Shown piece by piece: positions 2,234 to 56,731 of a DNA stretch of 64,000 nucleotides; the first letter of the stretch is position 1, and every line of letters begins with the position of its first letter. The position numbers and the translations under genes are program-made. The notes beneath the pieces were generated by a model that saw only the letters and a list, made by a program, of their open reading frames with translations, did not search any database and was not told the DNA's origin. The stretch spans positions 434,001 to 498,000 of the forward strand of contig AP026172.1 of assembly GCA_030295235.1 (NCBI GenBank), written 5' to 3'. The stretch comes from Fistulifera solaris (taxonomy: Eukaryota).

Positions 2234-2796
2234 TGTATTCAATCGGTTTGTATATGCATAATCTTATCAACAGCTTGAAGTGAAATGAAGGAAATCAATC
2301 GTAGCAATAGAGTGGCGAAGAACTGATTGCGATCAAAATTTTGATTGACAGCGTCACAATCAACGCCTGTTCCTTCTGAATAGCGCAAACAACATTACGA
2401 AAAGTCCGACAAGTATAGCCGCAGCAGAAAGCGAACTTTCAAGAAGGCTTTCTCTGTTGATGTGGTGACGATGATACTATTGATTATCTTGGATTTACTT
2501 TTTTATTGAAGCGCATTCGCCTTCACCGTCGTCACTTTTCGCAACCGAACATAATAAAGAAGAAAAGAATTTTGCATCGAGTCACGCGTCAAGTAAGTCA
2601 CGAAATGAAGTCGTATGTAGCCAAGCTACAACGAGAGCAATACTGAAAGTGACTGATTCTTGAAGTAGACGTCACCGCCGATCAACCTTTCGCAGATCTT
2701 CAACCATGGTATCTTCATGCCACTTTTTTTAACCATGGAGATACCTGGTATTATGATCCTTATGACAAGCACCCGAGCCGCTGTCCTTTACTTGTC

Positions 2797-37310: not shown

Positions 37311-38703
37311 GGATAACCCAGTGTGATTGAAAAAGCGGATTAGAGGTCTTTTTCAGCGAATGAAAGTAATAGTTTTGCCCATCACAAAGGGACGAATGAA
37401 CAACCGCTTCTTTCGGTGAAGAGATAAAAGAAAATCTTGAGAAGGCAAGGCATCGGTTTCAAGTATTTAGGAGATTTTTATGGTGGCTTTGGGATCTTTC
37501 TAGATGAACGGAAAGTTTATCACCTAAATACTTCTAATTTTTGCTGATGATGATACTCCGATGTACTAAATGCAATTACCCTTTAAAAAATTTGATAGAC
37601 CAGTGTACGTGTCACATCTACTTTCAAATAATTTCAAAAACAATAAGTCCATAACCTGATGTGGAAACGAATCACGAATTTATTCGAGTCCTGTGTGTAC
37701 TTGTACTTTTGGTCGTCTGGCTCGTAGCTCGCAGGACCCTCACGATTTTCATTCAAAGATGCAAAAGTCATTCGAGGTGAGTCACGAGTCAAACATCATA
37801 GAGTTTACCAAGCCGGCACCCAGCATGCTGGCGAAATGTTCTGTCATTTGGCCTGACTCATGACTCCTGACTCCAGACGCAGAACTCTGCAAACTGATGC
37901 ACTCAATAAAAAATACCACTTTGCGGACGTTCCAGTTTTGGCAAAGAAAGAATGCTCTGACCAAAAGTTCCCAATTCCCAACAAGCAAAAGTAAAATTTA
38001 CTACGGAGTATATCTGTAACCTTACCAGGTAGGGCAGTCACTACCGTTTTATAGTGCTCATAACCTTTATTTTTGCAGGGAAAGTGAGTCATGCGTCCAT
38101 CTTCTATTTGCCAAAGCGGGCAGCAAGACCTTGTTTGGGAAATAGGACCGAGTCTTGTTGCCAAATCTTCGGAAAAGAAAAAATTGAGGAAATTAGAATA
38201 AATATTAGTTTAATCGTTATTTTATGAAAAAACTTTTTGCCTCTCTATTTGCCACAACTAATTAATATTATTCCTAATTTTTTTTTAATCGTCAGAATCT
38301 AACCTTGACATTCCACAACTGGTTTTTGAGTACCAGTTGGGCAATAACTCTGATTCAGGAGTAGTATTTTCCTGCGGTAGTGACTGCTCTTATTAGGCCT
38401 TTTTATCTTTTAAAAAATCACGTAGAAGTGACTCTGTAGACCGTAGACGGTGGACGCTGGACGCGAATAATTTTAGGCCTCAACAAAAAGAACGATGAAC
38501 GACGACACGACATTGATGGCTTTGAGGCTTTGAGGCTTCAGAGCTCCAGAGTTAGAGTGCTTATTATCCGGTCTCTTAGTCGTCTTGGCCTTCCTTCTCC
38601 CTGTATTCCTGCAAGGTGAAGAAAATTACTCCGGGCTTCTTACTGGTATCAACTTCTCTGAGATTCCCCTGGTGAGCTTCTATTACTTTGCAATCAACCG
38701 ACG

Positions 38704-40332
38704 ATGTCTGTATTAATAGCTTTACCGGATGATCCACTGCAGCTAATTACGGCATTCTTGCCACCCAAGGATATTGCACATTTTCTTTGCTGCAGCCGAA
38801 GCTTTCACAGCAAATTCAACAATTCCCATATGTTCTGGACTCGTCTTCTACGTGAGCAGTTTCCCCAAACAAGCCTTGAAAAAGTATGTTCTGTGACGAA
38901 AGATCCGAAAGAAGCTTTTTTGGTGGAAGCTGGTGCTCGCGATCTGAACTCGGTCAAATGGATTCGCCTGGAGCAAGGAAACACTTGGCCGTCCAATCGT
39001 GAAGGCCACCTCTGTGCGAGATTGGGAAACTTCATTGTTATAACAGGTGGTTTTACCGACGATGATGATGTGTATGTCTATGACTTATCGGCAAGTAATA
39101 CGAGCAAGACTTTCGCTCGAATCAGACCTACCGTGGAAGCGCATCAAGTTCAAGAATCACCCGATCCTACCAGTAGCCCTCAAGCAGCCGTTTCTCATTT
39201 AGCAAGTCCCCAACCTTTATTCGTCTATGGAGCGTCTTTCACGGCTCTCGACTCAAATAGAGCAGTACGTTTCGGGGGCTTTTGTTCCGGTGGTTATTCC
39301 TCAGAAATTGGTCAGGTTGTGTTGTTCACGTTGAATGGTACGTCAGCGTCGTGGCGAGTCATTTCCTGCAAGTTGCAATCGGGTGGTGACCCGATGAGCC
39401 AGGACGGGTCGCTTCGGTTAAGTCGAGCGTATCATACTGCGACTTTGCTGTTTGATCGGTATTTGCTGATTCTTGGAGGTATGCAGAGAAGCGAATCGAC
39501 TTGGGAACCGGTCATTCTCGACACGCTGACGTGGACTTGGCTAGATCAAGATATTCCCCCGTCTGCAGCAACAGCTATGCATCCATCGAATCGACATGGA
39601 CATTCGGTAATTGTCGACCCGGTCCGTAATAGGTTAATGCTCTTCGGAGGTGGCGATGGGTCGGATTTGTTACGATCCGGTAGAGATAACACCGAAGTTT
39701 GGGAGTGCTCACTGCCTTCGCAGCATAATGATCTCGGTGTTTTTGTCAGCACAATGTGGAATTGCCTTCAAGAAGATCAGATAGCGACCATCCTTGGTTA
39801 TGCAAATGGGGGAAATGGTGAGATGATGACTGGACATGACGATAACAACTCCCACCTTCTTACCGCTGTAGAAGCACTCTGTCTTGGTAGATGTCATTCC
39901 GCTTTTCGCGTGAGTCGCGACAAGGTGGTAATAGCATTTGGATCAGGTCGACCATCTACCAATGGGATTCTGGGGTATGATTTGGCTAAGAATGTCTTTT
40001 GGAGGCCCAAGATATTGGGAAAACTTCCACTACCTCGTTTTACTTTCGCTTCGGTGTTTTTGGAAGAATACGGGTACATCTTCTTTCATGGTGGCTTCTC
40101 TAGTCAGCACGGATCTAGTATCGCGGATGGTTGCTTTCTTGACCTTGCTGGAAGTTTCAATCGTGCTTGTTTAATAATGAGAAAAAACTCTAGTGCGATG
40201 CCAAATCCGACTCCAACGAATGCCACGGCGTTGCAGGAACTCGAATTTCTCTATTCAGATTCTAGAATCGGTGCAAGGTCAAGATCACTGCTCCAATACC
40301 TTCAGGCACTGGCCCAGGGCGGGCAGCAATAA
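38704..40332 (+). CDS. F-box/kelch-repeat protein
   Basis: N-terminal F-box LPDDPLQLITAFLPPKDI. Kelch repeats PSNREGH..GG, RAYHTATL..LGG, RHGHS..FGG and PLPRFTFAS..HGG. Confidence 0.85.
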   Translation: MSVLIALPDDPLQLITAFLPPKDIAHFLCCSRSFHSKFNNSHMFWTRLLREQFPQTSLEKVCSVTKDPKEAFLVEAGARDLNSVKWIRLEQGNTWPSNREGHLCARLGNFIVITGGFTDDDDVYVYDLSASNTSKTFARIRPTVEAHQVQESPDPTSSPQAAVSHLASPQPLFVYGASFTALDSNRAVRFGGFCSGGYSSEIGQVVLFTLNGTSASWRVISCKLQSGGDPMSQDGSLRLSRAYHTATLLFDRYLLILGGMQRSESTWEPVILDTLTWTWLDQDIPPSAATAMHPSNRHGHSVIVDPVRNRLMLFGGGDGSDLLRSGRDNTEVWECSLPSQHNDLGVFVSTMWNCLQEDQIATILGYANGGNGEMMTGHDDNNSHLLTAVEALCLGRCHSAFRVSRDKVVIAFGSGRPSTNGILGYDLAKNVFWRPKILGKLPLPRFTFASVFLEEYGYIFFHGGFSSQHGSSIADGCFLDLAGSFNRACLIMRKNSSAMPNPTPTNATALQELEFLYSDSRIGARSRSLLQYLQALAQGGQQ

Positions 40333-40455
40333 CTAAAGGCAGTGGTGACACCCCCAACGTGAGTGACTAGTGATTGAGTAGCCAAATTAAAAATATTAAT
40401 CTTGGATACTTGTTTACTTTAGATTCTGATAGCCTCCTGGTACTGTAGCCACATT

Positions 40456-43400
40456 TTAAGAGTTCGTGTTACTGTAGTCTTTCAGAAAGAATCTGCGGCT
40501 TTTAAGATCGTAAGGCCGTCTTGCTGGTGGGTCTGAACCACTTACAAAACCGACGAGATTGAGGGAATTAAACTTCCAAATGCTACCTTGTCGTCCAGAG
40601 GAACCACTGTCATCCCAAAGCTTCTGCATATTCGTGCTTTCCTTGCACCAGTCGCGTGGAACGCACCGCATCATGTCAACTTTCGGCTGTTGATCGGTCT
40701 TCGATCCGATAAAACCTAAAGCAACAAACTCTTCTCCTGGTGGAACTGGTTCCCACGCATAGAAATGGTTGTTACCGTGTGTCAGACTCCAGGCTAGGCG
40801 GAACCTGGCAGGATGGGGTAAATATTTGTTCAAAACATGAGGTAACCAGCTACTACCACCAACCCAGCCGCTAGAAGTATCCGTAATCTCAAGGCAAAGG
40901 CGTTCGTTGCCGTCACGAAGTGGATTATCATACCCGTATCCAGCAAAGTGTCCTAAGCAAATTGCGGCTTTGTTCTGCTTGAAGCCGCCAGCTTGAATGG
41001 AAGGATTCCAAATGGAAATCTTGTCCCTGCTCATGCTTCCCTGGCTATTCCAAATCAAGTTAAATTTCGTAATCTTCTTCACTTTAATTTTGATAGAGGC
41101 CAAAACTGGTTCTGGGATCACAACTTTCAGTGTACCGGAATCCTCAGAAGGCATCGGTGGAAGAGGAACCCCTGCGTTGAATGACATGGATGGTGCCATA
41201 TCACTCTCATCCTCGAAACCAACGGCGGCCTTGAACTCTTCGAGATTAATGAATCCATCGTTGTCTTTGTCAAGTTCTTTCATAAATCCAGCGACAAGAG
41301 CAGGGTCAAGTTTAAGACCCAGCCAGTCCATACCTTTTCTCAAGTCTTCTTGGTTCAACAGACCATCCCGGTCTCGATCAATTGCTGCAAACGCATCCCG
41401 CGGATACATTCCCCTCGATTTCAGCAAAGCAGTGATTCGCCCTGCTGCAATCTTATAGTTAAGAAGATGGTGCTCATCTGCTGTAATGAAGACCTTCGAA
41501 AGCGATGTTGTTTCTGGGGCGATTTCTTTGCGCCTTCTATTACTTCGTACTTCGCAGAAAAAGTTGTACCGTCTTTCTAAATCGTTGTTCTGCAATGACC
41601 TGAGCAGAAGCGTTAACTCTCTTGGGCGGTAGTTTACTTGGCTATCAATGAAGCGGTAACAAGCCTGTGCCGTAGAATCCTGGAAGCTCTGTGCTGCTTC
41701 GTAACCATGTGTGGAATCTAGCGTCGTGCGTTCAGTTCGGAGAGATAATGCAGTGTCTCTTCCTGGAATAAGGGGAAGCATAGACTGCTGGTGAATAGCA
41801 GCTCTCATACACTCAGCTTCAAAGAGAGATAAAGCAACATAGAAGCGGCCTGCTTGCACTCTGTAGAACATCCGCTGTGTTAGGTAATGCTTGAGCTCGT
41901 CAAAAGTGATCGTGCGTGATTGCAGATCAGGTAGATTTCCAAAGAATTTGTCCCCGTCTTCACCGTCAACATCGACATCAACAGCTCGAAGCACCTCCCG
42001 CAGCTCAGCTACAGAGATTGTCGCAGACGTTTCCAATTTGTCACCAGCTGACCCTAAAAGGCTGTTTTCAACATCTTCTCCTGTTCGCGAGTGAGCGGTT
42101 TACCGACTGATGCGATTTCTTGAAGTGCACTTTTGGATGGGTAAAAATCCATTGTAACAATGACATTCTTGAGCCTTCGGTGAGTTTTCGTACTCCACTG
42201 TTTGTTGTAGTAGTTGCGTGAAATCAGCATGTAGTCGGGGAACTCGAGGGAGACGCCTTTGGAAAACATATAGTTTTTGACGGAAAACTCGGACGCGGGG
42301 TAGAAGTACTTTTGAAATGGCTTGACCTCATTACCGTCTGTCTTGGAGTTCACGTCTGCATTGTGAGCTAGCGACTCGATTTGCCAAGGAGTAGGCATCT
42401 CGTCATCCCTGGAGTATTTCTTCTTTTCGCCGATTCATTTACTACTTCTTCTTCCTCTTCTTCCTCCTCCTCTTCTTCTTCCTCCTCCTCCTCTTCTTCC
42501 TGTTCACACAAAGAATACAACAATGAGTTACATCAAGAGAAATTGATTCTTGGCACATATTGATACAAACCTGTTCTTTCAAGACTTCTTCCTCCGCGAC
42601 TTGTTCTTTCTGAAGCTCGGCGTCCTGATCTTCCTCTGCTGCTTCTGCCACAGATGGCTCACCGAATTTTTGCTTCGCGAGCCCTTCCGAATTGACAAGA
42701 ACCATCAAAATCTTATCAATTACAGCTTTGTCATAGTCGGACTTGATGAACTCCTTTCGTCGTAGAACAGTGTTACGCAGTTTTTCCGACAGGGGGGTTG
42801 GTATAGGAATACTGTTGGGAACAAGGAAGTCAAGTCTTTCGGTGAGAACATCCAAACACTTCTGGATACTATCGATTCCAATCAGTTTGGTTGCTGTCGA
42901 TGATCCAACTGTTCCAGCTTGAACTACCGCTAAGATTGCGTCGAAATCTTCAGAAGAAAAGTTCGTAGTTTGAAGGTCAAGTTCGAGATCTCCGTCTATG
43001 TCGTTTCCGGATTTGTTCGAGCCCCTATTCGCCAGAACGGCAAACTCTTTGACGCGATGTGCGAATGCAAGCTGTGTCAATTCGCGGTAGCTAGTTGTCA
43101 ACAAGCTATAACAACGCTTTCTAGAGACGTTGTCGATACTCTGGTGGCATAACATGCGAAACTGCATGTTTTCGCTTTTCATTCCATTAACAGTTAACCA
43201 CGCGGCGACATTCACGAGAAGCTGTTTGTTGCTCGTCTGAGAGACTAGCGCGTTGCTAGTTGGCCCAGTCGATAATGGAGAAGCAATACCAAAGGGGTCG
43301 GAGGTTGAATTTGGGTAAGAGTGGACTCCATTGTTTCCGTGGACAATGTTACTGCTGAGACGCCGATACTGGTCGTCCACTAATCTCATTACCTCAGGAA

Positions 43401-46400
43401 TGATGAAAAGTTCAATGGTCTGACCTTTGCCGATACCGCGCATACGGAAAGCACCTTGGGCATAATCGCGAAAAGTCATATCTTTTCCAAGGGTAAGAGC
43501 GGCTCGCGCATCGATTGCTTGGTGAATATCCATTCCGGTTGTGTGAATCTGGTCGTAAAAGGAAAATCGGCGGTGGGGAGGGATTCCAGACTGGTTTAGT
43601 CTAACCACATTCATGCCGTTTCTCATTAAAATCATTTTGCGATCTTTGTGGTCGAGGAAAACAACACCATCGAATTCTGGTGGAAGCCCATAATTAAGCA
43701 AAAACTTCGCGACGTCGAAGTTGCTCATGCCCGTTACGAGTGCTCCGCAGTCGAGCAGAACATGGAATGGAGGCCGTGCGGTTGCGATGTCAGTTAACAG
43801 CTTTGTAACGGACCAGTCAGCGTCGAGCAAACGGCTGCTCACGATTGATTCAGATGTGAGATAATCGATTATCTGACCATCAACACCTTCATCATACTCG
43901 CATTGACCAAGTTCCTCTGGAAGTAGATCACTCGGCGTCCCGCTAAACCCAACTCGTTTACCAAACAACATGTCGCCGCCGAGATCCTGTCCAGATGCAC
44001 TTATTTTGTCGTGATGATGCTCCATTGTTAGCGGGAACACAAAGGTATGCAAATAATACTGGAGAACGCTTGGGATATTTTGAAGAAGTTTGTAAGTGAC
44101 GCTCATGTGCTGGTCGTCTTTTACGTCAAGAAGATGTAAAGGCCATATATCATCGGCGCCTCGGGCGCCAATCCGTCCAGCTGGCGCCTTGAAGAAATCC
44201 GCCTCTGGATCATCTTTGTTGCCCCTTTCGCCTTCACCTTCCCTAGGGCCCCTTACTTTCCCACCAGCCTCCTCGACCCAAGCCTTGTACTTAAGGGCTG
44301 CCGGTCGCTTGTGAAAAGGACCGAATTCAGAATCCAGCTGTTCTCGAAGGACTCCGATTACATTTTCAAAATCAGAAAAACGCAAGCCTTCATAGCGGTA
44401 TGCCAAAATCGTCAATCCAATGACGATATCAGGGTGGGAAAATTGGCTTGCTCTGCTGGGAATGTCCTTTCCAACAAAGGGAACAGCAGCGAGACGTCGC
44501 GATAAGGAAACGCTGGATTCCGTCTCTAGGGTCAATTTTAGATCGAGCTTTGACAGCAGCCCATAGCTTACGCGGTTGATCTTGCTTAAAACATGAGGCA
44601 GGAAATTCCTCAGCAAGTCGTGGCTTAGATTCAGCATTTTCATGTAGTCATCGTCGAGAGCAACGTGAACAGCAGATGCGGCTTGGCGATCCTTTAGCGG
44701 TCCGTTCACCATGTATGATATCAGATGTCTATCCTCGACTGTCGGAAGACGTTTGTGTCTGAGATAGAGAAGCTGCCACCTCGCCATGAGAGGTTTCAGT
44801 TCTCTATGATAAAAGGTCTTGTTTAACAGAACAAGGTGCGGAGTGTGCTGAAGATGCTTTTCAACAATGCCTTTCCGAATAACAGCGGCAATTTCTTGCA
44901 AGACAGTTATGGCCTCTCTGCTGTCCTTGAAATCGACTGACATTTTTCCAACCGATGCGTAAAATACCCCATCAATGAGATGCCAGAACAGGTCCCAGCG
45001 AATTCCGATGCCCAGTTTCCCGCGCGAGTAATCGATAGGATCTTTGTGACCGATTGGCCAATTTAGCTCCGATTTCAAGGGGTGCAAGATCAAGTCCACT
45101 TCGTCCAAAAGTAAACAGCCACTCTTGAAGAGCTTCAGAATCTCAGTGCAGTAATAAACATCCTGGGGCTCAACGTCGAATTCCACAGTCTCGACTTGAT
45201 CACGGAAACGTTTGGCAATCGCAGAAAGAGAAAACGCTCCGAAGATTCCATTGTTTCGGGCTGCTCTTCTAGCAGCCCCAAACTTCTTCTCCTCCAAAAT
45301 CTTCATCATTTCGACAAATTTCAGCATAAAAGATTTAATACTCGTCGGTGTAGCACAGATGACAGCTTTGCTGTCCCGTGCTTTGCATAGCTTGAGGTAA
45401 AGGTCCCTTGTGATTTTCGTCCCGCGGCTGAAGCTGAATGTGAATATGGGCTTCCTCACAACCGCTGCAGAATTTTTCTCGCATCACACCTCGTGAAAAG
45501 TCAAGGAGTGCATGCGGAACAACCTGGGTGACCAAGGATTTACCATCGGCTAGAATGAGAGCCAGAAGCGGAGTAACAACGGTTGTCTTTCCAGCTCCCA
45601 TGATCATTTGGTTGCACATCGATCGGCCGCTTTTCATTGCACCGATGAGTTTGTTTACCAGCAGCACTTGACTTTTTCGTAGCATCAACGAGTAAGTGAA
45701 TTCAAATACAAGATATCTTGGATCAAACTCGATAAAATTGCCATCGGGAGTAGGAGTCATGAAATGCCTCTCATTCGAAATATCAGCGGCTACTTTAGAG
45801 GATTGCAACTTGATTTCCTGGCTCATTCGTGACCTCGCGTGAGCATTTTTAGTGCCGTTTATGCTGGAGAGAAGCTTATAGAGCTTCGACAAACTGAGGC
45901 AAAGCAGATGGTGAGATAAAACAATTGATAGGTTGAGAATCAGATTATAATTCATACCTTGAAAGTGCACGGTGAGTTTGGGAGATTCTGATCGAGGTAA
46001 GCATCGCGACAACTGTCAAACTGGTGACTGTTTTGTATGCGACAGGCGACAGGTGCGGATTGAGTGATCGGATGTCATATTCAGAATTTGTCGATAAAAT
46101 TGAAGCAACCAGCAGTTCAAACCAAGGCACTGGTTCACGTTCGCCAACTTGACCAAGACGAAATCTCAAGAAGTTTATTTCATTGTGCACGTTGTCTGGC
46201 GAGGGCGTGTCGCTTCTTTCATCACTGGCGGCGATGGCGAGAGCCCGCTTCATCAGATTCCATAACGATTTCCTATCAAATTGCATCGCTTGATTCAGAG
46301 ATTTGATAAGCTTGTTCAGCTGCTCCAAGGCCTTGGCCAGCCCAGCTGGGTTGGTGTGAAATGCGTCCACTTCAGCGGGCGTGAAGCCAATGAGCATAGG

Positions 46401-49400
46401 TGTCATTTCCGAGTTTGCTTTTTGTGCATACTTGAAAACGTCTGTCTGGACACGTTGCATTGTAGCCTGAGAACAGTGCGTTTGCGATGCCCTCTCAGAG
46501 GATACGTCAAACGAGAGAGTGGACGACACAGGAGGCATACCGACTTGCATTCTTGACAGATAACAAACAAATTTTTCGAGTTGAATTGGTGCCAGCGGCT
46601 TCGATGCAAATGCCTGGAGTTGTTTAAACGGAATATTAACCGCAGCGCAGTTCTGTACATCCAAATAAAATTTTTCTTGCGAATAGTCAGATATGCGCGG
46701 TACCACCCACAACCGGTGTGAAGAAAAGGATTCAGGTCGACTTAATATCATGGCGGAACGAGGTAGTGATTCCGGGTAGATACTTGTGTTCTTTATCATA
46801 GCCCGAACACCTTCCTGGTTTAGAAAGGTGTGCAATTCCCCAATCAGCCTAGTGACTGAGTCCTTGCCGGCAAACATCCCTTTCAGTTTACTCATTCCAC
46901 TATCAGGCTGAAACTTTGGAATCGATGGATGCGATGCTACCGGCGGATTTTCGGCAAGTATTCTTAGAATTGACATCTCAGCGGAAAGCGTTTTGTAATC
47001 CGACGGCGGGATGAGCCTAAAAGAATTCGACCCCAATTGTGTGGTCTATCAGCGGGATGAAGCTTAAACTTCACAGTGTTTGTAAGCAAGTCATATAGGA
47101 GAGGGAAGCCATATCTAGATGATGCCATTTCCACCCCAGACGATACTGCATTATTTATAAACTCGAGCGCCTTAAGCCCCCCGTATGCTACATCGTCCTG
47201 AAGTCAACAAAGAAGGTGAACAATGGCAAAGCATATCAGCAAAAAACTGTTCCAACAGACTTACCTCCTCTGGTCTACTATACGCTGCCCCAAATAGTTT
47301 CGCCGATACCATTGTCTTCTTCGGATTTTCGATGATTGTGAAGTCTGCACCAAAGTCAAAATTTTCTACCAGTGGGGGCTTTTCTTTGCCCAACTGTACG
47401 GTGAGCGTTTTGTCCTTAGGCAATGACGAGAGGCTGGAAACCGCTCCCACAAAGGCCTTACGATTAAGAAGTCTGAGCGAAAGTCGATCCTTACTTTCGG
47501 GTGTACAAAGCTGAAGAAGAAGCAATTCCTCTTCGGTTGTCAATCTACACGCCGAAGATACATATCCGTGTTTCTTCACATAAGCCTCCATTTCCTCTGA
47601 GATGCTCCATGGACACTTCATTGTTGATTCCGAACCCAGTCCTACCGTCACAACCGACAACTTCAACCTACAAGCATGAGCATCTGGGTGAAAGTCATTG
47701 CCAAGAAATTCAAGCTGATTGAAGATTTGTTGCTAGAACCAAAAAGCGTGAGCTACCTATAGCCACAGAGATACAATTTCTAGTTTCAAGCAAGCAATTG
47801 ATTAGGGACTCACCTCTTCTGCGTTAAGCTCTTCACTAACACACGACTCGACCATTTTGAACACCTCCGCATACAATCCGGTGATAAAGTACATAAGCAT
47901 CAAATAGAGGGAGGACGCCAGAGAGGGGGTAACAAGAAAAGACTGCGAATTGTGAATTGGATAAAGGTAAGATCGTACCTCCCCAATGTTGTTGTTCCAG
48001 TCTTTGTTGCGCCTGTCAAGAATGACTTGCACAGAAAGATGAGAGCCATCTACATGGAGGCGCCGCGGTAGAGCACAGCTTGGCATCAAAACGAAAAGAT
48101 CATTGTCCGAATTTTGAAGAACGATGTAATGAGCAATCGTACCAAGCAAACGCTCCGAAATTTCACGCGCTTCGGTCGACGTGGCTATGAACAGCCCGTC
48201 ATAATCATTACTGTAAAGACGCTGCTCTATTTGCCCGTCAACCACTTCCTCAGTCTTGGCTTTGAATGACAGATTTACTCGAGGTAGTTCAATCAAATCG
48301 ATTGAACCGGGATCGTGTGGGGTTTTTAGCTCTTCTTTACTCCAAACAAGAACATGAGCAAGGTTATCGAGTCGCGAGAGAAGCATGCCGACTCGTTTCA
48401 ATAACGAAGAAGGAGGCGCGGTAAGAATATTCAGTAACGTGTGAGAAACTCGACTTTTATCAAGCTGCTGAAGTGAATGATCAAATCCAAGCACAGGAAT
48501 ACGCTGGATGAGAGCTTCTGCGGCTGAATTACAGTAGCCTGTCTCGTCGAATTCGGAGCCCTTGGAAAGGATGATGCGCAATCTAGTCGACGGCGTGTTT
48601 TCGTCTATTGGTGGCTTTTCTACGTCATCCTCGCTTCTTGTAGGCTCTTTTTCATACCCGATTATGTTGTCGTCTTCGCTTTGCCAAAGTGATACTTCGC
48701 GACAAGCGCCGAAGGAAGTAAACCCGCTAGAAACCTGGGAGGAACGTAAGTCTGCAATCCCAACTCAGAATTCAATGCTCGAGTCACAAGTAGAGATGGT
48801 CCGGGTTCGACTGTCGTCATCGGAACACCCGCGGATAGGGATAATATCCCGCCCACTCGATCAGGATATGGTTCGCCCTTCACTTCATGCAGACACATGG
48901 AGATATTAGATGAGTATTCAAGAACACGCATGTGCCTTCTTCCATGCTCAACAACATTGAATACAGCCAAGACAGGAGGATGCTGCCAAACAACAACTTC
49001 CTTCAAAGTGTGACTACCTGGCGCTCCGTCGGCTGCTTTGTTGTTCTTCATCCAACCACTCAATACGACGAACGCTTCATCGGCTTGATTTTTCGAACTC
49101 ATGTACAAAGTCGTTTCCGGTAGAATTAGCGGCAGCTTGTCCTTGAGTATATCAGCTATCCACATTTCATCTTTGTGAAGATTATTTGGGAATTTCCGGG
49201 AGAGACGTGGGTCTACAAACCCCTTTATGTCGTAATAATTTCGACTGTCAGGGCCCCATGATAAGACGTCGTATCTTCGTCCCACAAGTCGCCACCAGTA
49301 CCGATTGGTCGTGTGAACAACCTCTGCACATGCAACGTCCGACGCATCTTTCAGAGCTGTGCTCCTTGTCGCTCTAAAGTCACGGTCTTCAATGATATGG

Positions 49401-52400
49401 GGATCAAGAAGTGACATTTTATGATTTTGCAAAGTGAAGTCACTGAGTTGGACATTCACTTCAATACCTACAGCCTTCGTCGTGACGTATAGCATCCATT
49501 CTTCGTACGTTTGACCTTCTTTCGGGATACGGTAGCTACCATCTCGTAAATTCTTATCTTCAGTGTCTGGTACAAAGCGGCCATAACAAGTTTGGTGCTG
49601 GATACTCTGCCAGTGGCGATTCTCCTCAGTGCTTTCTTCTCTTGTACCGGTACCCGTTGCTATGCGCACAACCGCTTCCATAGCCCGATCACCTTCTTTA
49701 GGATGCTCTCGAACAAATCGTAGAATGTTGTATCGATGAGATTGAATACAATCGAAAATTTCTGATTGGGCGATCTGAATCGAAGGAGGTGGCTGTGTTG
49801 GGTTCGCTGTATCTTGCAAATCATCATAGACTTTACTGCTAAAACGATGATTGATAGTAAGATAAACCTGCGACGACATGATGATAGACACGGCTCTGTA
49901 GTCGAGGTCATCATAATCATAATTCTTGAATAGGTACAATAGATGAGCGTGAGTGAGGCATCCGGTGGTCACGTCTTTGGACCGTGATGGATCAATCCAA
50001 TATTCGAGAGTTGGAATCGCCTGCGCATCAAGAACCCCACGCAACTTTACTAGAGCATTATCCACCTTGATGTTGTCCAAGGACTCTAACCCACGAGGAC
50101 GCGGCTGGCCGGGGATGCACTTTCTCAGAGCATATTTCAGGTACCCCTCAAGTCGAACAGCCAGTCGAATCGCATACAAAATCAATGGTCCACTTGCACT
50201 CTTCTTAGTATAACGTCCAACATCCATATCCAGCGCTCGTTCTAATATTTTGATGACACAAGCAATCAGAACGTCAGGCGACTTGGCAATTTCATTGAAC
50301 AGAGTACCATGAGGTGTCGCAAGAAGAGCCTCAAGACGATCGATATCAATAATAGGAACCTCATTGATAAAGTCAGCAAAGTCTGCTGGTTTCCATCGTC
50401 CAGGTTCAAACAGTGCTGCATCCACGATGAGCTGGAGTGACTTAGTTTTCAAAGCAGACAATCTTGACGGATCTCCGTTCGCAAAAAAGTCTAAAATCAA
50501 AGGAATGCGAATGTACGGCACCGTCAAGAATTGCACGAATCGTTCAGAGTCAGATGGTGTCAAAACGTTGCCAAAAGTGGGAAGCTCTTTCGTTTCCAGA
50601 TGTAACACATCATCCTCCGTGACCACTGAAACGGGCTTTGACCTGAAAAAGTATGATAACATGGTGAGAATCATTTAATAATAAACCAAAAGGACACCGA
50701 ACACTCTACACGTGCTTACCGCTTGGTCAAAAACTTCTCTCCACAAGAATTAACAACCGTCGTGGCATCGGCGGATGATAATCGCGATCGTTCGATCTTC
50801 GACTTTGCTGAAAAAGGGCGAGAAATCCTTTGAAGGCCGACGATTTTTTCGTAGGCTCTTGCTGTGCAATTCGTTCAACGAACTGCTGGTCGTGACCTCG
50901 AAAAGCAGTGACATGGTAGGAGAACAAGGGGTTGTCTTTCTCTTTTTCGTTTCTCTTTACTTGCCAGTGAAGCGTAGCATCAGATGGTAGCCATGTGTGT
51001 GTTTCTGGAACGTCCGGAGTTTGATCTTTACCTGATACAGCGTGCTTGAAATGGAAAACTATATCCCGGAAATACTCGAACTCAGGCAGGACCTCGATCA
51101 GTGACCCATTTGAACCTCCAATCAATCGAGCAGCATGGTTTGTCATTTCTTCGTCAGTGCGTGAATGAGGGCGTTGCATCGCTAGCTGAATAGAGAGCTG
51201 ATCAATCAAAGCAACATCACCCTTCATTGGAGAAAGGCTTTTGTCGAAATTAAAAATTGTATTACGGAAGGTACCATCGCGTCTCAAACTCGAATTCCTC
51301 AAATAATCTAGACACTGGTATCGAAGCGAACAAACATTCGGATCGTAAATGGGAAGATTTGACCCCAGTGTGTCGTACGCTCCAGCTTCAATTGCGAAGG
51401 GCTCGGTAGGGCCTTCACATAGACCCGAATAATGCAAAGCAAAAGTACTGGGATCGTCCACAGCCACTGCGCGACAGATGGCGTCGGCGACACAAGCTGC
51501 TGCAGCAAAAGCGGTGGAACGGATGGCGATCAAACCTCTGGATTGCTGGACGCACGCTGTGGCCGCCGAATATATTCTGCAAAGTCTTCGGATAAGAAAA
51601 AGCAGGTTTAACTGAGTTTCTCGGCGCATTTCATTTCTTCGCCAAAAACAAAACTTCGGATCCAAATTGGGCATGGGCAACACCGTGGTCAAAGTATGCT
51701 GAGCAGCCGACGCTGCGAAGGCAGGAGCATTTTTATCAAGCTGCGTTGTTGAAGGAGCAAGCTACATGCATCTGCAACACGTTGCAAGTAGGAACCAGCA
51801 GTTGTGTAATCTTTGGCCACAGGAGGAAGGTGCTCATCCGTCAAAACTGCTGGAATCAAGATAGGATCAGGTCGAGGGTCTCCCATCAGACGCTTGACAA
51901 CTTCCTCATAATTGTCCCTTCGTAAACGACCAAAGAGCGGAAACGCAGCGGACCCGGCTCCAGTGCGCATCGAGACAATTTTACCTTTGGAGAAGTCGTC
52001 GGTCATGGCGGCCGGAGTCAGCCCGTGACTGTACTGATCCATTGGTTTTGCGGATGAAAAGTTAATCTTTTCAACAATTTGTCCAAAAGATCCCACGTAT
52101 CAGACAGTGACGCACCAAGACTTCCGTCCCCAACAGTATTGGGATGAATTGTCGATGCAAAGTTTGCGATGTTTCTTCCTGCCAGTTTCAAGATTCGAGT
52201 ATCTTCTGGATCCATGGAAGAGGGAGGAGCATGCTCAATTTCGTCATAGGCAAGTTGAACGGCAGCGTTCATCAAAAGCAGGGTAGCATACTTGGAGCTT
52301 CTGGTGCCGGTTGCGGGAGAACTCGTCAACGCTAATCTAGCCAAGGGATGGTACGACTGCGCCGATATTTCGTCGGGAACTTCCAAGTATTCCGAGGGAC

Positions 52401-54227
52401 CCTGATCCAAGTTGGAGAGTAGAGGACGCGAGTTTAAGGCCGGTAAAAGCTTGGTGTACAAGAAAGCCGCATTGTTTTTATGACTTGGATAAACTTGCAT
52501 ACGAAACAATAAGGTCCAGAAAGTAGAATCCATAATACGAACACTTGGGATGTCCCAGATGGTCATGGCAAGCTGTTTCAATTCACGACCAGTCTCTGGA
52601 TCAAAGCTAGCTGGATGGTACTGGAGGCCATCACGACCAGTGTTGCAAACGGTAAAGCTCCAGCGATTGTTCCCGCAGTTTCGGATGATATAGAGACATA
52701 AGTACGTGTAATCGGGCTGCTGCCAACCACCCGGTAACACGAGCTGTTGGTTGTCTTGGACCTGCTCCAAAAACGGCACAAAGACGTTGATGAAATTCAT
52801 AAAGAGCCCGTCCAAAGCAGCCCCGGAAGCACCAGCCGAGTGCGGAAGAAGACTAATAAGCTTAATACAAGCTTCACAAGCCATGTGGTTGTTGTGTAAG
52901 AACGCGATCGGATTCTTCCCCGCCCGCTTCTGAGCGGTCATAGCACACACATGACTGACAAAGCTCAAGGCCTTGGAAAGTTGCTGGTAATTCGCGGATC
53001 GGTCCGCCAATTTCTCTTTCGGTACCGGCTTTTGCTGGATATACGTGTTCAGATTCATCAAGGCCCAAAAGGTGGAACACGAAAGATCGGAGAGAAGGTG
53101 CGTTCCGGCAACTTGTTGCTTCCCACCAAGTATTCGTACGGATTGAACGAAGCCATCGATAACGAAGTATCGAGTTCCCCGCTCGTCGTTGAATGCAAAT
53201 GAAAACCACTCGTCCCCAAGCCCGTCGTCGTGTCCGACACACGAGCCTTGCGCGATTCTTCTCGTTCTTTTCGCATTTGCTCCTTTTGACGAGCTTCTTC
53301 TTGTTCGCGCAAGCGTCGTGCCTTGGCTTCTGCTTCCGGTGCGATCGCCGGAGCTTGGGACTGTCCGGTGCCTGCAAAGCTACTGACACTCGACACGGCC
53401 GTAGCCGCGGGACTTCGGGGCAGCGGATACTTGGTAGTATCTTCCGTTTTCGTCATGCTCGGTGCTTTCGCTACAACAGGGGTACCAGTCGACTTCACCG
53501 ACGACGTCAAAGGCGAACTGGATCGGCTACCCGCCGGCGTCGTCGTTTTGCTACTACTCGGCGATGCAATACCCAGGCGTGCCAAAGCCGCCTCCGCCGA
53601 AGACGGCGATGGAGCCGCCGGTAAGTTCGACTTGGGGGTATGGCTCACGGGGGTGGCCACCGAGTTCTGCGATCCACTGAACGTACTGGAAGGAGTCGTT
53701 GCGTTCATCGCGGAAGGGGTAGATACTTGTGGACCGGTAAAGGACATTCCGGATGTGGTGAGTGCCGGCATACTCGGCAAACCGGCCGAGCCAGACAAGT
53801 TGTTAGACGGAGCATTCAGTCCTTCCAAACCAGCAAAAGGGTCTTCGGGTTCGTAGCGAGGTTGCGGCATGGTAAATGATCCTGTAACGTTCGCCGGAGG
53901 AGCAAAGGATACTGGCGGGGGCTGAGCTCGTTGCGGATGTACCTGCGGAACCGCCGATGGGAACGAAGCTTGCTGCATACGTTGCTGCATGTTAGGAGGC
54001 ACAAAGGCCGGTGCCACCGGAGTCACGTAAGTAGGAGGGAACCATCCCTCCTTGTTGTTGTAGGATCCCCACCACCAGGCACCCTCCTGATTGGGCTTGG
54101 CGAGAATCGTAGCACCTGGTGGGAAAGAGAGTTGCGACTGGCGCGGATCACCTTGAAACAGGTGTTTCGATACGTACTGCGCGGGCTGCATTTTGGATCT
54201 TCGGCGGACCCGATCTTTGTTGCTCAA
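40456..54227 (-). CDS. Giant multidomain protein (~4,400-4,500 aa): SH3, unknown helical region, DUF3638/DUF3645 P-loop ATPase (SF2-like), EF-hand pair, Vps62-like C-terminus; at least 5 introns and several homopolymer frameshifts
   Basis: Contiguous same-strand ORFs join through introns 50643..50719, 47733..47813, 47198..47264, 45894..45957 and 42500..42570 plus single-base indels. Motifs: SH3 (QLSFPPG..WWWG...EGWFPPTYV), QMIMGAGKTTV, LLLDEVD, AVPFVGKDIPSRASQFSHPD, GFSGT, YDQIHTTGMD, QGAFRMRG, DRDRDGLL/DKDNDGFI, and W.PVPPGEEFVALG..LWDDSGS. Confidence 0.75.
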
Positions 54228-54884
54228 GTTTTAAAAGCAAATATGCAATCAACAATGCTTCAATGAAAGGAGAAAGTTATTCAATAACCGTTTACTTTCT
54301 TTGGATAAGAGGAGAAGGCAGAAACCTTTGACCCACGAAGCAAGAATGAAGACCAACGTTACCTGGTACTGGTAACGGACCTCGAAAAAGGGCATCATCG
54401 GTGGGAGGAACGTTCATCCTCCTAAAATCTTCATTCCGCACGCACTGTGAGCCGTGAGCCAGTGCCAGTCGACCTCCACTATACACATCAAAAGTGTAAG
54501 ACGTACGTCCTTCGTCCCTCCATGCAGCAAAGATCAACGGCATGAAGGCGATCGATCGGCGACGAAACTCTAAGCAGGAAACTTGCTTGCATATCAAACC
54601 ACTATCACTAGTGCCGCTCCAACGGTACTGCCATTTTTTGTAGGCAACCTTTCATTCATGTTTATTAGGGACTGGTCTTTTCTAAATTCATGTTTTCAAT
54701 AATTTATTCATCTCTAGCTTAAGCACTTTTCCACCTCTCACAAAAAAGCTGCCACAATTCATTCATTCCAAGCAAAGATTTGGCAATAGAAGGAACATGC
54801 ATGCTCATCACAAGACACTCTTGACTAGAGAAAATAGAATCAATAAACAAACAGAAACATAATTTACTGAGCTTCAAGCGTAGA

Positions 54885-55883
54885 TTACATCAAAGGTTCG
54901 CCATCATCATTGCTGTGGCGAGCCTCCTCGGGAGGATTCTCTGAATCATCTCCCCTATCTTGCTTTGAAACCTTGACAGCAACTCGCCTCATCCGCCTGC
55001 AAAGTTCCGGACGATCCTTGACAAAAAGTTCATGGAAATAACCACCGCGGGCCGGACCGGCATTGATCAACTCGAATCCGTATAAATTGAGCTGCCTCTT
55101 GAAGGAGCTTAATCGACTCTGACGAAAATACAACGGCACAATATCCTTAAAGAAGCTATCGGAATTGTGAATGGCAAACGCGCGACCGCCGGCAATGAAC
55201 GAAATCACATCGGATCGACCGGCTGCTTCGACTTCCCGCAACAAACGGTGTAATTTCTCTGGAAACGGCTCAATGACACCGCCTCGCAATCGTCGATTGG
55301 TATCGCGATGAAAGAGTGCGTGCGAAGAGCCGAGGTCGGACTGCTGCAAAAAGTTCGGATTCATACTGCTCGAATTGCTCATTGGATTCATGAAAAGACG
55401 AGAATCTTGGATGAAACCTGGCTGCAACATCTGATTGACACCCCCAGTCACCATACCTTGCGATAGGGACGTGTCGAAGCGAGGGTTCGGCGACTTCTGT
55501 TCGAACATGGATTGCAATAAGGAAGCATCGTTGGTATTGCGTTGACTTCCTTGCATCAGCAAAGCATTTCCAACAACACCTGTAGAATTCATCTGATGTA
55601 GTTGCTGCAAACGTTTAATTTCGTTCGAAATGTTTAAACTCGTTTGTTGCTCACTCGAATTCATGTTCCCCTGTGTCGGCATCATTTGTGACTGGGAATT
55701 GTTCATTTGCATTTGAAATTGTTGTTGCTGGAGCATGGAAGCGATCGCATTGGTGTCCAGCGGCTGTCCGGCCTGACTTGATGATGGAGGCCGAAATGAA
55801 TTCTGATTGTTCATACGATCAAAACTAGCGAAACCGTTGCCGTTGTTGCCATCCATCGAGAAAAAAGACTCTTGCATCGTCAT
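54885..55883 (-). CDS. Heat shock factor (HSF-type DNA-binding domain) transcription factor
   Basis: FPEKLHRLL...VISF...GRAFAIH...F...VPLYFRQSRLSSFKRQLNLYGF...YFHELFVKDRPELC, with a Q/N/S-rich N-terminus. Confidence 0.9.
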   Translation of the reverse strand: MTMQESFFSMDGNNGNGFASFDRMNNQNSFRPPSSSQAGQPLDTNAIASMLQQQQFQMQMNNSQSQMMPTQGNMNSSEQQTSLNISNEIKRLQQLHQMNSTGVVGNALLMQGSQRNTNDASLLQSMFEQKSPNPRFDTSLSQGMVTGGVNQMLQPGFIQDSRLFMNPMSNSSSMNPNFLQQSDLGSSHALFHRDTNRRLRGGVIEPFPEKLHRLLREVEAAGRSDVISFIAGGRAFAIHNSDSFFKDIVPLYFRQSRLSSFKRQLNLYGFELINAGPARGGYFHELFVKDRPELCRRMRRVAVKVSKQDRGDDSENPPEEARHSNDDGEPLM

Positions 55884-56731
55884 TCAGAACGATAGTATCG
55901 TATTGAGGAACACGGGAATGCAATGGATGCACTGAAAAGATGGTAATAAGTGAGTTTGAAAGTTGAGGGATTAGGAGATTGTAGAACAAGGGAATGCAAA
56001 CGTTGCCAAGATAAGATTGATTTTATTAGACAGCCATTCGAAGTTCCTTCGCAATGCTGCGTTTTCAACTTTCGAAGGCGCTAATGCGAACACGAGAGAA
56101 CAGTGATAAAGAATATTCTATGGCCTGCATTACTTTTGTACTAAGAGCCACGTAAACAATACGAACGGCATACGATTGGATTCTATTCTGGCCAATAATT
56201 TCTTGTTCTCTGTTCGCTGCTCGACCTTCTTCGCAATTCCATGTGCTTTTCATTTGGCGGTACTGTCATTCGTCCTTGACTACATAACAATTGACTGTGT
56301 TCATGCATCGTGAAGAATTATTTAGCCGTAAGTAGAACTAGACAATTACTAAACAATCATAAGGGCACTGATAATAGCTGTTCTTCACGCTTCTCCAACT
56401 TGAAGTCGGGGATTCATTACAGTTGATTGACAGAGGAGTGAAGTTGTGAAAATTCTACCGTGGAATACGTGAGCTCGACATTTTCGATTTTTGTGCATTC
56501 GTCTGATCGGCAGCCGCAAAACTAGGGTGGAAAATCATCATTGATCCATTTTCCTACCAATTAGTCTACCTATTGTTACCTAATCCAGCAATATGCCAAA
56601 GCAAAGCTAGCTCAATATCTGCTTGAAGAGAGAGACTGAATCCGCTCTCTCGGAAACTCAGCTGTCTTTTCAATATAAAAATCAAATTAAGGGGCGAACG
56701 AAGTGGAGCCACATCCGGGATATCAGTACGC

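Follow-up and report, generated by a model that had tools for sequence, protein, structure and literature searches.

A dozen reading-frame fragments in Fistulifera solaris form one gene for a giant DUF3638/DUF3645 protein with a predicted SecA-like ATPase motor

Within the window, a stretch of 64,000 nucleotides from Fistulifera solaris contig AP026172.1, twelve stop-to-stop fragments of at least 80 residues tile positions 40456-54230 of the minus strand, which raises the question of whether they belong to one gene and, if so, what its product might do. The preliminary description had read them as a single gene split by five canonical introns and homopolymer indels and coding for about 4,400-4,500 residues. 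This reading was borne out by contigs from four runs, of which X1, X2 and X3, all from one study, behave as RNA, while X4 was compared as a fourth: the dozen fragments constitute a single gene of 13.8 kb, and only assembly errors of one base each break it up (Table 1). The spliced X1-X3 contigs overlap and span 40387 to at least 53935, with their depth dropping to about 1 in the bin 54242-54808, where X4 holds 21.9. A poly-T loose end of X3 at 40387 represents the poly(A) tail of a minus-strand transcript, and a check for separate transcripts found this to be the sole poly(A)-like end of the locus. Four introns of 64-81 nt, each with GT..AG ends when read along the minus strand, are spliced out in X1-X3 contigs. 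The fifth lies at a repeat masked in the contig comparison and was inferred from contig letter counts (72 letters between 42427 and 42570 in X1 record 1 and X3 record 12, versus 142 in the window); the alignment to Ditylum brightwellii P0013 runs across it. Of two joins singled out in the preliminary description, KEQ|EEEE (42571/42499) corresponds to this fifth intron and VPPF|W, near 53066, to a frameshift site.

Eight one-base differences separate the contigs from the window, all of them in homopolymer runs, and one of these, the surplus base at 45470, separates the P-loop from Walker B in the window. After removal of intron 5 the contig is still one letter longer than the window, pointing to a ninth error, which must lie at or below 42434 because the frame downstream is closed by a stop codon at 42437-42435. 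When 14 edits (five introns removed, nine one-base errors corrected) were applied by script, the minus strand became one 4,473-codon open frame, in which the first ATG (54191-54189) leads to a TAA at 40458-40456. The product computed from this frame has 4,460 residues and a mass of about 499 kDa. An in-frame TAA (54233-54231) lies upstream of the ATG, and the start methionine is shared with the relatives P0008 and P0009 in alignment. The corrected protein aligns in a single HSP with each of P0009 (residues 1-3779, 72%), Ditylum P0013 (2140-4460, 61%) and Vitrella brassicaformis P0026 (440-4431, 31%), and because these alignments are collinear the joining of the fragments is not due to chance. 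Decay to a pseudogene, or a set of distinct genes, with genuine frameshifts in either case, might be read from the nine frame breaks of the window as given, from the X2 contigs (depth 298) that are without the 42055 difference, and from the part of the X4 depth that is without those at 48685, 50810 and 53066. Against this, all nine breaks fall in homopolymer runs and every correction brings the frame back, all four runs carry seven of the eight corrections listed, conservation among relatives is uniform across every break, and the contigs are spliced and polyadenylated. We accordingly give such decay or separation practically no credence, and take the gene to be intact and expressed.

Table 1. 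Features of the locus; residue numbers count from Met1 of the corrected protein
Feature	Position	Strand	Basis
Approximate transcript span	40387..54241	-	overlapping spliced contigs X1-X3, poly(A)-like end
Coding sequence	40456..54191	-	4,460 codons after 5 introns out, 9 errors mended
SH3, aa 5-58	54018..54179	-	SH3_2 22.3 bits vs cut-off 21.8, E 1.1e-4
Low-complexity linker, Ser/Pro/Ala/Thr-rich, aa 60-380	53053..54014	-	composition
Conserved head, aa 440-715	52049..52875	-	beta lobe between helical clusters; P0009 model
Conserved region, ~1,975 aa, aa 716-2690	45839..52048	-	conservation in relatives
Motor lobe 1 (RecA-like; DUF3638)	45037..45772	-	DUF3638 57.9 bits
Insertion between motifs II and III, ~335 aa, mostly helical	44032..45036	-	DUF3645 50.9 bits
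Motor lobe 2 (RecA-like): GFSGT, HTTGMD, QGAFRMRG	43393..44031	-	motifs, conservation, model
C-terminal helical part of core	42571..43392	-	includes ~46-residue helix, model 869-914
18-Glu run	42446..42499	-	directly after intron 5
EF-hand pair, aa 4147-4205	41224..41400	-	EF-hand_7 E 7.6e-17
C-terminal 'Vps62'-type domain, aa 4249-4422	40573..41094	-	Vps62 40.9 bits vs cut-off 22.1
Intron 1, 77 nt, GT..AG	50643..50719	-	joint in one contig each of X1, X2, X3
Intron 2, 81 nt, GT..AG	47733..47813	-	joint in X1, X2, X3
Intron 3, 67 nt, GT..AG	47198..47264	-	joint in X1, X2, X3
Intron 4, 64 nt, GT..AG	45894..45957	-	joint in X1, X2, X3
Intron 5, 71 nt, GT..AG, inferred	42500..42570	-	contig letter counts; sequence read
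Assembly error, one extra A in runs (A-run)	after 53066		X1-X3 full depth; X4 17 of 26.8
Assembly error, T missing (T-run)	after 52067		all four runs, full depth
Assembly error, T missing (T-run)	after 51729		all four runs, full depth
Assembly error, A missing (A-run)	after 50810		X1-X3 full depth; X4 18.6 of 62.7
Assembly error, A missing (A-run)	after 48685		X1-X3 full depth; X4 32.7 of 70.6
Assembly error, A missing (A-run)	after 47018		all four runs, full depth
Assembly error, surplus base (T-run)	45470		omitted in all four runs, full depth
Assembly error, A missing (A-run)	after 42055		X1, X3, X4 full depth; absent from X2
Ninth error, inferred, +1	42427..42434		one base missing, most likely T-run 42424-42427

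The product is a soluble protein of the DUF3638/DUF3645 family, with no transmembrane-like segment (top 19-residue hydropathy 1.71). A Pfam scan recovered the domain order of the preliminary description, namely SH3 (a marginal match), DUF3638, DUF3645, two EF-hands and, over part of its profile, Vps62. The linker after the SH3 domain is disordered and varies among relatives without conservation, and the long conserved region preceding the motor matches no Pfam family even at E 10 and is mostly helical in its modelled part (716 to about 1140). As to the earlier suggestion of a Ca2+-regulated protein, two canonical 12-residue EF loops, starting at 4154 and 4190, are indeed present, and it is from these loops only that regulation by Ca2+ may be surmised.

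The five motifs on which an SF2-type core had been proposed (I, II, III, V and VI) were all located in the edited protein in the expected order: MGAGKTT at 2770, LLLDEVD at 2932, GFSGT at 3320, HTTGMD at 3455 and QGAFRMRG at 3484. Each of Gln2747, GxGKTT, DEVD, SGT, TTGxD and QGxxRMRG is conserved in 29-31 of the 31 sequences compared, the lobe 1 residues (Gln2747, Walker A with Lys2774 at 45589, and the Walker B DEVD, 2935-2938, at 45105) being invariant in all 31. Structures of the core and of the head were modelled from P0009, the 72%-identical relative. The core model (pLDDT 77, pTM 0.76) has the tandem RecA-like fold of SF2 enzymes with its two lobes, in agreement with the earlier proposal, and nine of its ten best Foldseek matches are SecA or SecA2. 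In structure comparison (VIA) SecA gave Z 17.5-17.6 over 429-442 residues (2fsf: Z 17.5, rmsd 5.5, 442 aligned) and SecA2 (4uaq) Z 16.6 over 466, versus Z of at most 15.4 and about 330 residues for other SF2 enzymes; this lead of SecA amounts to no more than about 2 Z units and comes mostly from C-terminal helices, the SecA alignments reaching model residue 1026 where the others mostly stop near 880-910. Three features of SecA (compare also 5eul) recur in the core of the window protein: a Walker B that reads DEVD, a sizeable insertion that parts motif II from motif III, and long helices that follow lobe 2. The insertion, which occupies the place of SecA's PPXD, differs in that it is helical in the model (residues 280-604) and holds the DUF3645 motif, whereas the PPXD is not helical. 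Further differences are that the window protein is eukaryotic and cytosolic, has 4,460 residues with about 2,700 before the motor, and has no detectable sequence similarity to SecA, phmmer and a PDB search with a profile returning low-complexity matches only; we know of no link of such a protein to a SecY-type channel. Judged by the model, the motor is an SF2 ATPase whose nearest solved relative is SecA, and its conserved motifs predict it to be active. The specifically SecA-like nature of the motor and the conserved N-terminal protease-like head had both been missed in the preliminary description.

That description had also regarded the architecture as undescribed, a view that does not hold given 359 long relatives across many protist groups. 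The tail of EF-hand plus Vps62 occurs in 13 of the 120 relatives listed, and SH3 families in three of the 120 (P0022, P0037 and P0050). Giant proteins with PF12340 and PF12359, such as Ditylum P0013, Vitrella P0026 and Bigelowiella natans P0089, have head, scaffold, motor and EF-hand in the same order and are collinear over nearly their full length. They differ in the N-terminal adaptor, which is an SH3 domain in the window protein and a PH, WW, thioredoxin-like, zinc-ribbon or PDZ domain in relatives. Further domains added in relatives include UBA_7, AZUL, WWE, MIB_HERC2, RING, the RanBP-type zinc ribbon, DnaJ and FYVE, and as a whole the accessory domains lean to ubiquitin, redox and protein-binding functions. 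The window protein is thus an ordinary member of a large, catalogued, uncharacterised family of giant proteins, on no member of which we found an experiment in the literature.

What the motor acts upon can be read in several ways. Most eukaryotic SF2 enzymes are nucleic-acid-dependent, and the protein might be a helicase, translocase or sensor of this kind, for instance in RLR-like surveillance, with the terminal domains serving localisation. MDA5, RIG-I, LGP2, DinG, Hel308 and Snf2-type remodellers reach Z 13.5-15.4 against the two RecA-like lobes; RIG-I/MDA5, DinG and Snf2 enzymes, all of which act on nucleic acids, fit these lobes nearly as well as SecA. The complete set of motifs I-VI, shared with these and with DEAD-box enzymes, and the Q-motif-like Gln point the same way. 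However, the scores of SecA and SecA2 are better and their alignments longer by 100-130 residues, and the accessory domains of those SF2 enzymes are all absent from the window protein, in which no nucleic-acid-binding module was recognised. Nor was such a family recognised among those that Pfam lists for 120 relatives or in 11 proteins scanned, although RanBP-type zinc ribbons can bind RNA too, and the lean of the accessory domains described above also speaks against it. The occurrence of the DUF3638 family in giant viruses and its expansion in parasites, as reported in PMC5423893, would fit host-pathogen conflict, but on balance we consider action on nucleic acids unlikely.

The head, in contrast, invites comparison with proteases. 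Its model (P0009 467-1164, pLDDT 78.5) matches Legionella LegA15 at Z 11.3 (217 aligned), AnkD at 10.4 and AnkH at 9.6, values near Z 10 being in the middling range of the comparison tool; these are the only solved chains with more than 200 head residues aligned. The modelled fold resembles that of their C-terminal protease-like domain (PDB 7kj6, 7xql, 7ew8, 6mca), a beta lobe between helical clusters being common to both, and it is also found in giant-virus DUF3638 proteins. A His is followed 21-22 residues on by Asp or Asn, H268/N290 in LegA15 (PMC9757750) and, in the window protein, His526 (52617) and Asp547, through which the head retains the family pair; the His occurs in 203 of the 204 rows of the relatives' alignment. 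Identity is 8-9%, and the window protein has neither ankyrin repeats nor a Cys that corresponds to C361 or C324. The domain of AnkH is described as clan-CE-like and protease-like (PMC6712400). From this fold, from the UBA, AZUL and zinc-ribbon domains of relatives, and from the intact PQR[SA]G[TVN]C and His...Gln...Cys set in the heads of 16 of 164 relatives, P0089 among them, one could envisage that the protein works as a deubiquitinase or cysteine protease whose head receives substrates from the motor. The name 'ubiquitinyl hydrolase 1' is carried by five listed UniRef relatives (P0013, P0026, P0067, P0078, P0107) and two giant-virus members in BFVD; for the window protein it is unsupported, because its head is entirely without the Gln/Cys segment, reading PDEIS|AQSYHPLA there, with no Cys in residues 600-650. 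The conserved Cys810 and Cys849 lie outside this segment. Gln plus Cys is found in none of 27 diatom-like heads, and no Pfam peptidase family matched even at E 10. Among the relatives' rows as a whole, Cys is replaced by Ala in 13 and by Gly in eight. Even for the closest solved relatives the activity is disputed, since protease activity was not detected for AnkH in the account of PMC6712400 and LegA15 is reported as a GTPase in PMC9757750, and we regard an active protease as very improbable. The remaining proposal, recruitment to vacuolar or endosomal membranes as a trafficking factor like yeast Vps62, takes up a membrane-trafficking role named as possible in the preliminary description, and could appeal to the above-cut-off Pfam match and to relatives with N-terminal PH or FYVE lipid-binding domains. 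PH and FYVE are absent from the window protein, which has no transmembrane segment, and the match is confined to positions 28-185 of a 541-position profile, with two loose motif copies (4264 and 4409) and, in a pattern search of the domain, no strict one. Such partial matches are described as beta-tripod recognition domains whose link to Vps62 is a spurious alignment artefact (PMC7613979, PMC8624791); the match is therefore no evidence for vacuolar sorting, the domain is probably a beta-tripod-like recognition domain, and a trafficking role seems quite doubtful.

We tentatively favour, at somewhat less than even confidence, an ATP-driven machine whose substrate is a protein, which it would grip and either move or remodel, and not nucleic acid. 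Docking on targets would fall to the SH3 domain together with the recognition domain at the C-terminus, and Ca2+ bound to the EF pair adjoining the motor would gate ATPase activity. An extended chain would be clamped by the SecA-type motor, in which a large insertion parts motif II from motif III, and the head, which may have lost its Gln/Cys catalytic segment in this lineage, would thus act as a substrate-binding module and not as a thiol protease.

The preliminary description had taken this locus for a single giant gene lying in about ten ORF fragments. On the minus strand, 12 stop-to-stop fragments of at least 80 aa tile positions 40456-54230, and four public sequencing runs from one study (X1-X4) cover 79-92% of the words sampled from this locus. 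Over the region for which contigs of these runs were compared with the window (39500-56500), those of X1, X2 and X3 each omit four stretches that are bounded by CT..AC on the plus strand and correspond, after ambiguity shifts, to four minus-strand GT..AG introns of 64-81 nt. None of the four joints was seen in the X4 contigs, X3 has a poly-T loose end of 21 letters at 40387, and in the intergenic bin 54242-54808 the depth of X4 is 21.9 as against about 1 for X1-X3. The splicing, the poly-T end and the intergenic drop in depth lead us to infer that X1-X3 are RNA-derived and X4 genomic. Thus, of the five canonical introns claimed earlier, four are seen directly as contig joints, while the fifth follows from contig spacing together with sequence: record 1 of X1 and record 12 of X3 have 72 letters for 42427-42570 against 142 in the window, the repeat there being masked, and the intron immediately follows KEQ codons, with a Glu run coming next.

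Introns of the giant gene, in window coordinates
Feature	Position	Strand	Basis
Intron	50643-50719	-	joint in X1-X3 contigs, GT..AG
Intron	47733-47813	-	joint in X1-X3 contigs, GT..AG
Intron	47198-47264	-	joint in X1-X3 contigs, GT..AG
Intron	45894-45957	-	joint in X1-X3 contigs, GT..AG
Fifth intron (inferred)	42500-42570	-	71 nt, GT..AG; contig spacing and sequence

Inside the gene the window differs from the contigs by eight single bases, all of them in homopolymer runs. Seven of these differences are present in all four runs, and an extra A after 42055 is found in X1, X3 and X4 and is absent from the X2 contigs (depth 298); those at 48685, 50810 and 53066 are carried by part of the X4 depth only. 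A ninth one-base gap must fall within 42427-42434, because the contigs are one letter longer than the window without intron 5, and the frame downstream runs into a stop at 42437-42435. This gives nine homopolymer errors in 13.8 kb, namely eight missing bases and one extra. When all 14 edits were applied by script, the minus strand yielded a single open frame of 4,473 codons, with an in-frame TAA upstream (54233-54231), the first ATG at 54191 and a TAA stop at 40458-40456; the product has 4,460 aa, a mass of 499 kDa and a pI of 6.8. The corrected protein aligns as a single HSP with each of three relatives: P0009 over residues 1-3779 (72% identity), the Ditylum brightwellii protein P0013 over residues 2140-4460 (61%), a stretch that spans intron 5 and two error sites, and the Vitrella protein P0026 over residues 440-4431 (31%). 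The single frame and these alignments confirm that the fragments belong to one giant gene. Gene decay was rejected as the cause of the frame breaks, which are assembly errors, and the probability that the locus is a pseudogene or several separate genes is close to negligible.

The corrected model has consequences for annotation. Three public orthologue models of 3,756-3,819 aa (P0002, P0008 and P0009) stop at what are residues 3771-3779 of the corrected Fistulifera protein, exactly the position of intron 5. They probably read into this intron and probably lack the true C-terminus, a tail of about 680 aa with the EF-hands and a recognition domain. The assembly of the window looks unpolished, so that its other long genes are probably fragmented likewise; as long as the homopolymer errors are uncorrected, gene calls on this assembly will break up long genes. 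Other differences between runs and window were seen across the compared region: 36 of the 174 X4 contigs match the window at only 90-95%, and these, along with the partial corrections at three sites, may represent a second haplotype or a paralogue. At 40454, 40459 and 40485 one X2 contig of depth 394.8 disagrees with the window; together with the X2 difference at 42055 this may reflect a variant 3' end or an allele. On one side of the gene, a 556-aa plus-strand frame at 38662-40332 encodes an F-box and Kelch-repeat protein (Kelch_KLHDC2, E 4e-23; F-box, E 7e-6), and the X3 and X4 contigs carry many single-base differences from the window in 39531-39835. Upstream, the minus-strand neighbor at 54885-55883 is a gene for a DNA-binding protein of HSF type (E 5e-17), covered very deeply by X1-X3 contigs (as much as 1,598); three extra bases (GAT) follow position 54919 in X1-X4.

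Two Pfam matches, in the ninth and tenth fragments, identify the family. DUF3638 (PF12340) scores 57.9 bits (cut-off 31) in fragment 45335-46015, the match resuming in the next fragment beyond the error at 45470, and DUF3645 (PF12359) scores 50.9 bits against 25 downstream of it. As both exceed the gathering score, and the protein is collinear over full length with P0009, P0013 and P0026, its sequence places it in the DUF3638/DUF3645 family. A sequence search with the 966-aa core recovered 359 longer relatives at E <=0.001, and the 120 of them that were listed have 1,715-4,828 aa and all bear DUF3638/DUF3645; named sources among those listed include Ditylum, Vitrella, Prymnesium, Eutreptiella, Diplonema, Pelomyxa, Bigelowiella and an ochromonad. 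By hand count EF-hand families occur in 63 of these 120, Vps62 in 13 and SH3 in three, and five carry the UniRef name 'ubiquitinyl hydrolase 1'. In a MAFFT alignment of the protein with 30 full-length relatives, residues ~480-4200 are conserved, the first 440 and last 260 residues being unconserved. Pfam scans of eleven relatives revealed additional UBA_7, AZUL, WWE, MIB_HERC2, RING, RanBP-type zinc ribbon and DnaJ domains, as well as thioredoxin-like, FYVE, PH and Jacalin domains; WW and PDZ occur in head-bearing fragments of relatives. The family is catalogued and widespread, and in the literature searched DUF3638/DUF3645 received passing mentions only: one article states that the DUF3638 mechanism 'remain[s] undefined' (PMC12615304), and a figure legend in another names DUF3638 as the domain of a large gene family from a microsporidian (PMC5423893). 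Literature searches for DUF6606, PF12340, PF12359, IPR022099 and IPR022105 returned nothing, and one for a SecA-like giant protein linked to ubiquitin gave nothing relevant among the papers listed.

The motor region contains motifs I (GxGKT) at 2770, II (DExx) at 2932, III at 3320, V at 3455 and VI (arginines) at 3484, in this order; each of them, along with a Gln 27 residues ahead of the P-loop, is kept in 29-31 of 31 sequences. Since the window translation breaks in the P-loop lobe at 45470, the equivalent part of P0009, 72% identical overall, was modelled instead (residues 2724-3805, with an alignment of 30 relatives), giving a pLDDT of 77.1 and a pTM of 0.76. Compared with solved chains using VIA, this model scored Z >=8 against 727 of 983, nearly all of which are SF2 enzymes. 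In this model the core is thus a tandem RecA-like SF2 motor, and the SF2-like ATPase of the preliminary description is borne out by the model and the order of the motifs.

Foldseek against PDB gave 18 matches at E <=0.001, the top ten being nine SecA/SecA2 chains and MDA5. When Foldseek's list was realigned with VIA-align, SecA/SecA2 occupied ranks 1-13 (Z 17.6-15.4, 336-572 aligned, reaching model residue 1026); the best of these (Z 17.5-17.6) align 429-572 residues, including regions beyond both lobes, and the first non-SecA enzyme was ALC1 (Z 15.4, 331 aligned). A Foldseek-independent search likewise recovered SecA (Z 17.5, 442 aligned, rmsd 5.5) and SecA2 (Z 16.6, 466 aligned), with SF2 helicases and remodellers at Z 15.4-13.5 and ~330 aligned. 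By this model, the nearest solved relative of the core is SecA, by a modest margin owed largely to the helices that follow lobe 2, among them one of ~46 residues. Walker B (DEVD) and motif III are separated by ~335 inserted, mostly helical residues that contain the DUF3645 motif. SecA has its preprotein-binding domain (PPXD) at this place; the insertion here is helical in the model, which PPXD is not. At the level of sequence, phmmer and profile searches linked the core neither to SecA nor to any other solved protein: SecA Pfam families did not match the protein, phmmer of the core against PDB gave zero matches at E 1, and the core profile matched only poly-Q or low-complexity segments in PDB. 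Membership in the SecA family was rejected because this homology was looked for and is absent; the protein may nevertheless work like SecA.

The conserved N-terminal domain, or head, was likewise modelled on P0009 (residues 467-1164, with 19 relatives; pLDDT 78.5, pTM 0.53). Foldseek found no PDB match for it at E <=0.001, and it ranked LegA15, AnkD and AnkH with probabilities of 0.92-1.00. In VIA no chains but these three aligned over more than 200 residues (LegA15 Z 11.3, 217 aligned, rmsd 4.8, model residues 1-278; AnkD 10.4; AnkH 9.6); most other rows represent a trivial three-helix bundle at model residues 176-283, and none of the matches listed was a Ulp1, SENP or XopD chain. According to PMC6712400 the AnkH domain resembles XopD (clan CE), contains H243-D258-C324, and gave no protease activity in vitro; LegA15 is reported in PMC9757750 as an atypical GTPase for which C361 is important and H268 of little weight. 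The matches of the head in BFVD are the initial portions of DUF3638 proteins from Klosneuvirinae (Harvfovirus, E 7e-10), and those in the ESM Atlas are two unnamed clusters at 0.94 and, as a lead only, a YopJ-type acetyltransferase cluster at 0.78. Profile searches of the head against PDB retrieved only designed helical bundles (E >=0.02). Pfam, searched to E 10 with seven N-terminal and middle fragments, gave nothing credible; searched to E 1 with ten fragments of relatives that contain the head, it returned neither a head family nor DUF6606. A middle fragment had no usable match in the ESM Atlas.

We then surveyed the head (query residues 377-708) against 1.84 billion representatives, which gave 421 matches at E <=0.001 and 113 at <=1e-10; an alignment of 39 short relatives was converted to a local HMM, with which 219 head domains from 293 sequences were aligned. 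His526 is almost invariant (203 of the 204 rows having a residue there), and the column of Asp547, 21 residues further on, has D in 97, N in 36 and E in 11 of 206 rows. Divergent members show a segment PQR[SA]G[TVN]C[FY][FY][RK] ~85 residues past the His; among the 164 rows reaching it, Gln is found in 33, Cys in 16, and His, Gln and Cys together in 16, including the 4,073-aa Bigelowiella protein P0089. The Cys is replaced by Ala in 13 rows and by Gly in eight, the PQR[SA]G[TVN]C frame being retained within giant relatives; judged by the alignment, this reads as the classic signature of pseudo-enzymes arising repeatedly. Ser occupies the Cys column in 62 of the 164 rows, in a stretch aligned too poorly for a swap of nucleophile to be read from it. 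The Fistulifera protein keeps His526 and Asp547 and lacks the Gln/Cys segment, reading PDEIS|AQSYHPLA there, and no Cys was seen in its residues 600-650, although Cys810 and Cys849 farther on are conserved; the 27 diatom-like rows (>=50% identity) have Gln and Cys in none, His in 26 and Asp/Asn in all. The family head thus resembles a thiol-hydrolase fold, which a minority of members keep intact and many, including the diatom branch, have in degenerate form. The label of cysteine peptidase was rejected for the protein under study, because the nucleophile Cys was looked for and is absent.

At the extreme N-terminus, as in relatives, the first fragment contains a marginal SH3_2 match (22.3 bits against a Pfam cut-off of 21.8), SH3_1 and SH3_9 staying below their cut-offs; residues 60-380 are rich in Ser, Pro, Ala and Thr. 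The last fragment bears an EF-hand pair (EF-hand_7, E 7.6e-17), whose 12-residue loops at 4154 and 4190 match the canonical pattern D-x-[DNS]-x-[DNSG]-x6-[ED] and are predicted to bind Ca2+. No transmembrane-like segment was found in the protein. The C-terminal 230 aa had a single, irrelevant phmmer match in PDB (E 0.069). Within the scaffold, residues 2041-2124 (window ~47600-47900) include strongly conserved blocks with the consensus YLYPVHxS and DxHPDAHACRLKL, in which His2056, Ser2058, Asp2115 and Arg2124 are kept in 30-31 of 31 sequences; these blocks could form a second active or metal-binding site.

As a tentative reading, possible though short of probable, we propose a soluble ATP motor that would act on proteins and be gated by Ca2+, docked through its SH3 and C-terminal domains, with a head that would bind the substrate without cleaving it. 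That proteins would be the substrates is suggested by SecA as the best match, by the protein-, ubiquitin- and redox-type domains of relatives and by the lack of a recognizable nucleic-acid-binding module. Against this reading, the margin of SecA is small, nucleic-acid enzymes fit the lobes almost as well, both models come from a relative, P0009, and ~2,300 residues lie outside them. A nucleic-acid helicase or sensor is rather unlikely. A trafficking factor of Vps62 type is improbable. The Vps62 match (PF06101) in the last fragment reaches 40.9 bits against 22.1 and covers profile positions 28-185 of 541 only, and PMC7613979 and PMC8624791 treat partial Vps62 matches as beta-tripod recognition domains, calling the link to Vps62 spurious. 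In its strict form the beta-tripod motif (D-x-G-S/T-G-x3-D in PMC8624791) has no match in the protein, and two loose copies occur at 4264 and 4409. Still less likely is an active deubiquitinase, as the protein is devoid of the required nucleophile; the automatic name 'ubiquitinyl hydrolase 1' is unsuited for transfer to the diatom branch.

The analysis adds the corrected full-length model, the truncation of public orthologues at intron 5 and the split between intact and degenerate heads. The DUF3638/DUF3645 family is among the largest conserved protist protein types without known function, and the SecA-like motor and the split of the His/Gln/Cys head open it to concrete experiments. A wider scenario, extending the protein-acting motor to the whole family, is speculative and in our estimate doubtful: its eukaryotic, giant-virus and chlamydial members would be SecA-type polypeptide motors, each connected to a papain/CE-like head by a scaffold of 2,000 residues, some cleaving ubiquitin-like or other proteins and others, including the diatom protein, serving as a Ca2+-gated remodeller or substrate trap with an inactive head. 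If true, the family would represent an ATP-dependent protein-processing machine with an SF2 motor instead of an AAA+ motor.
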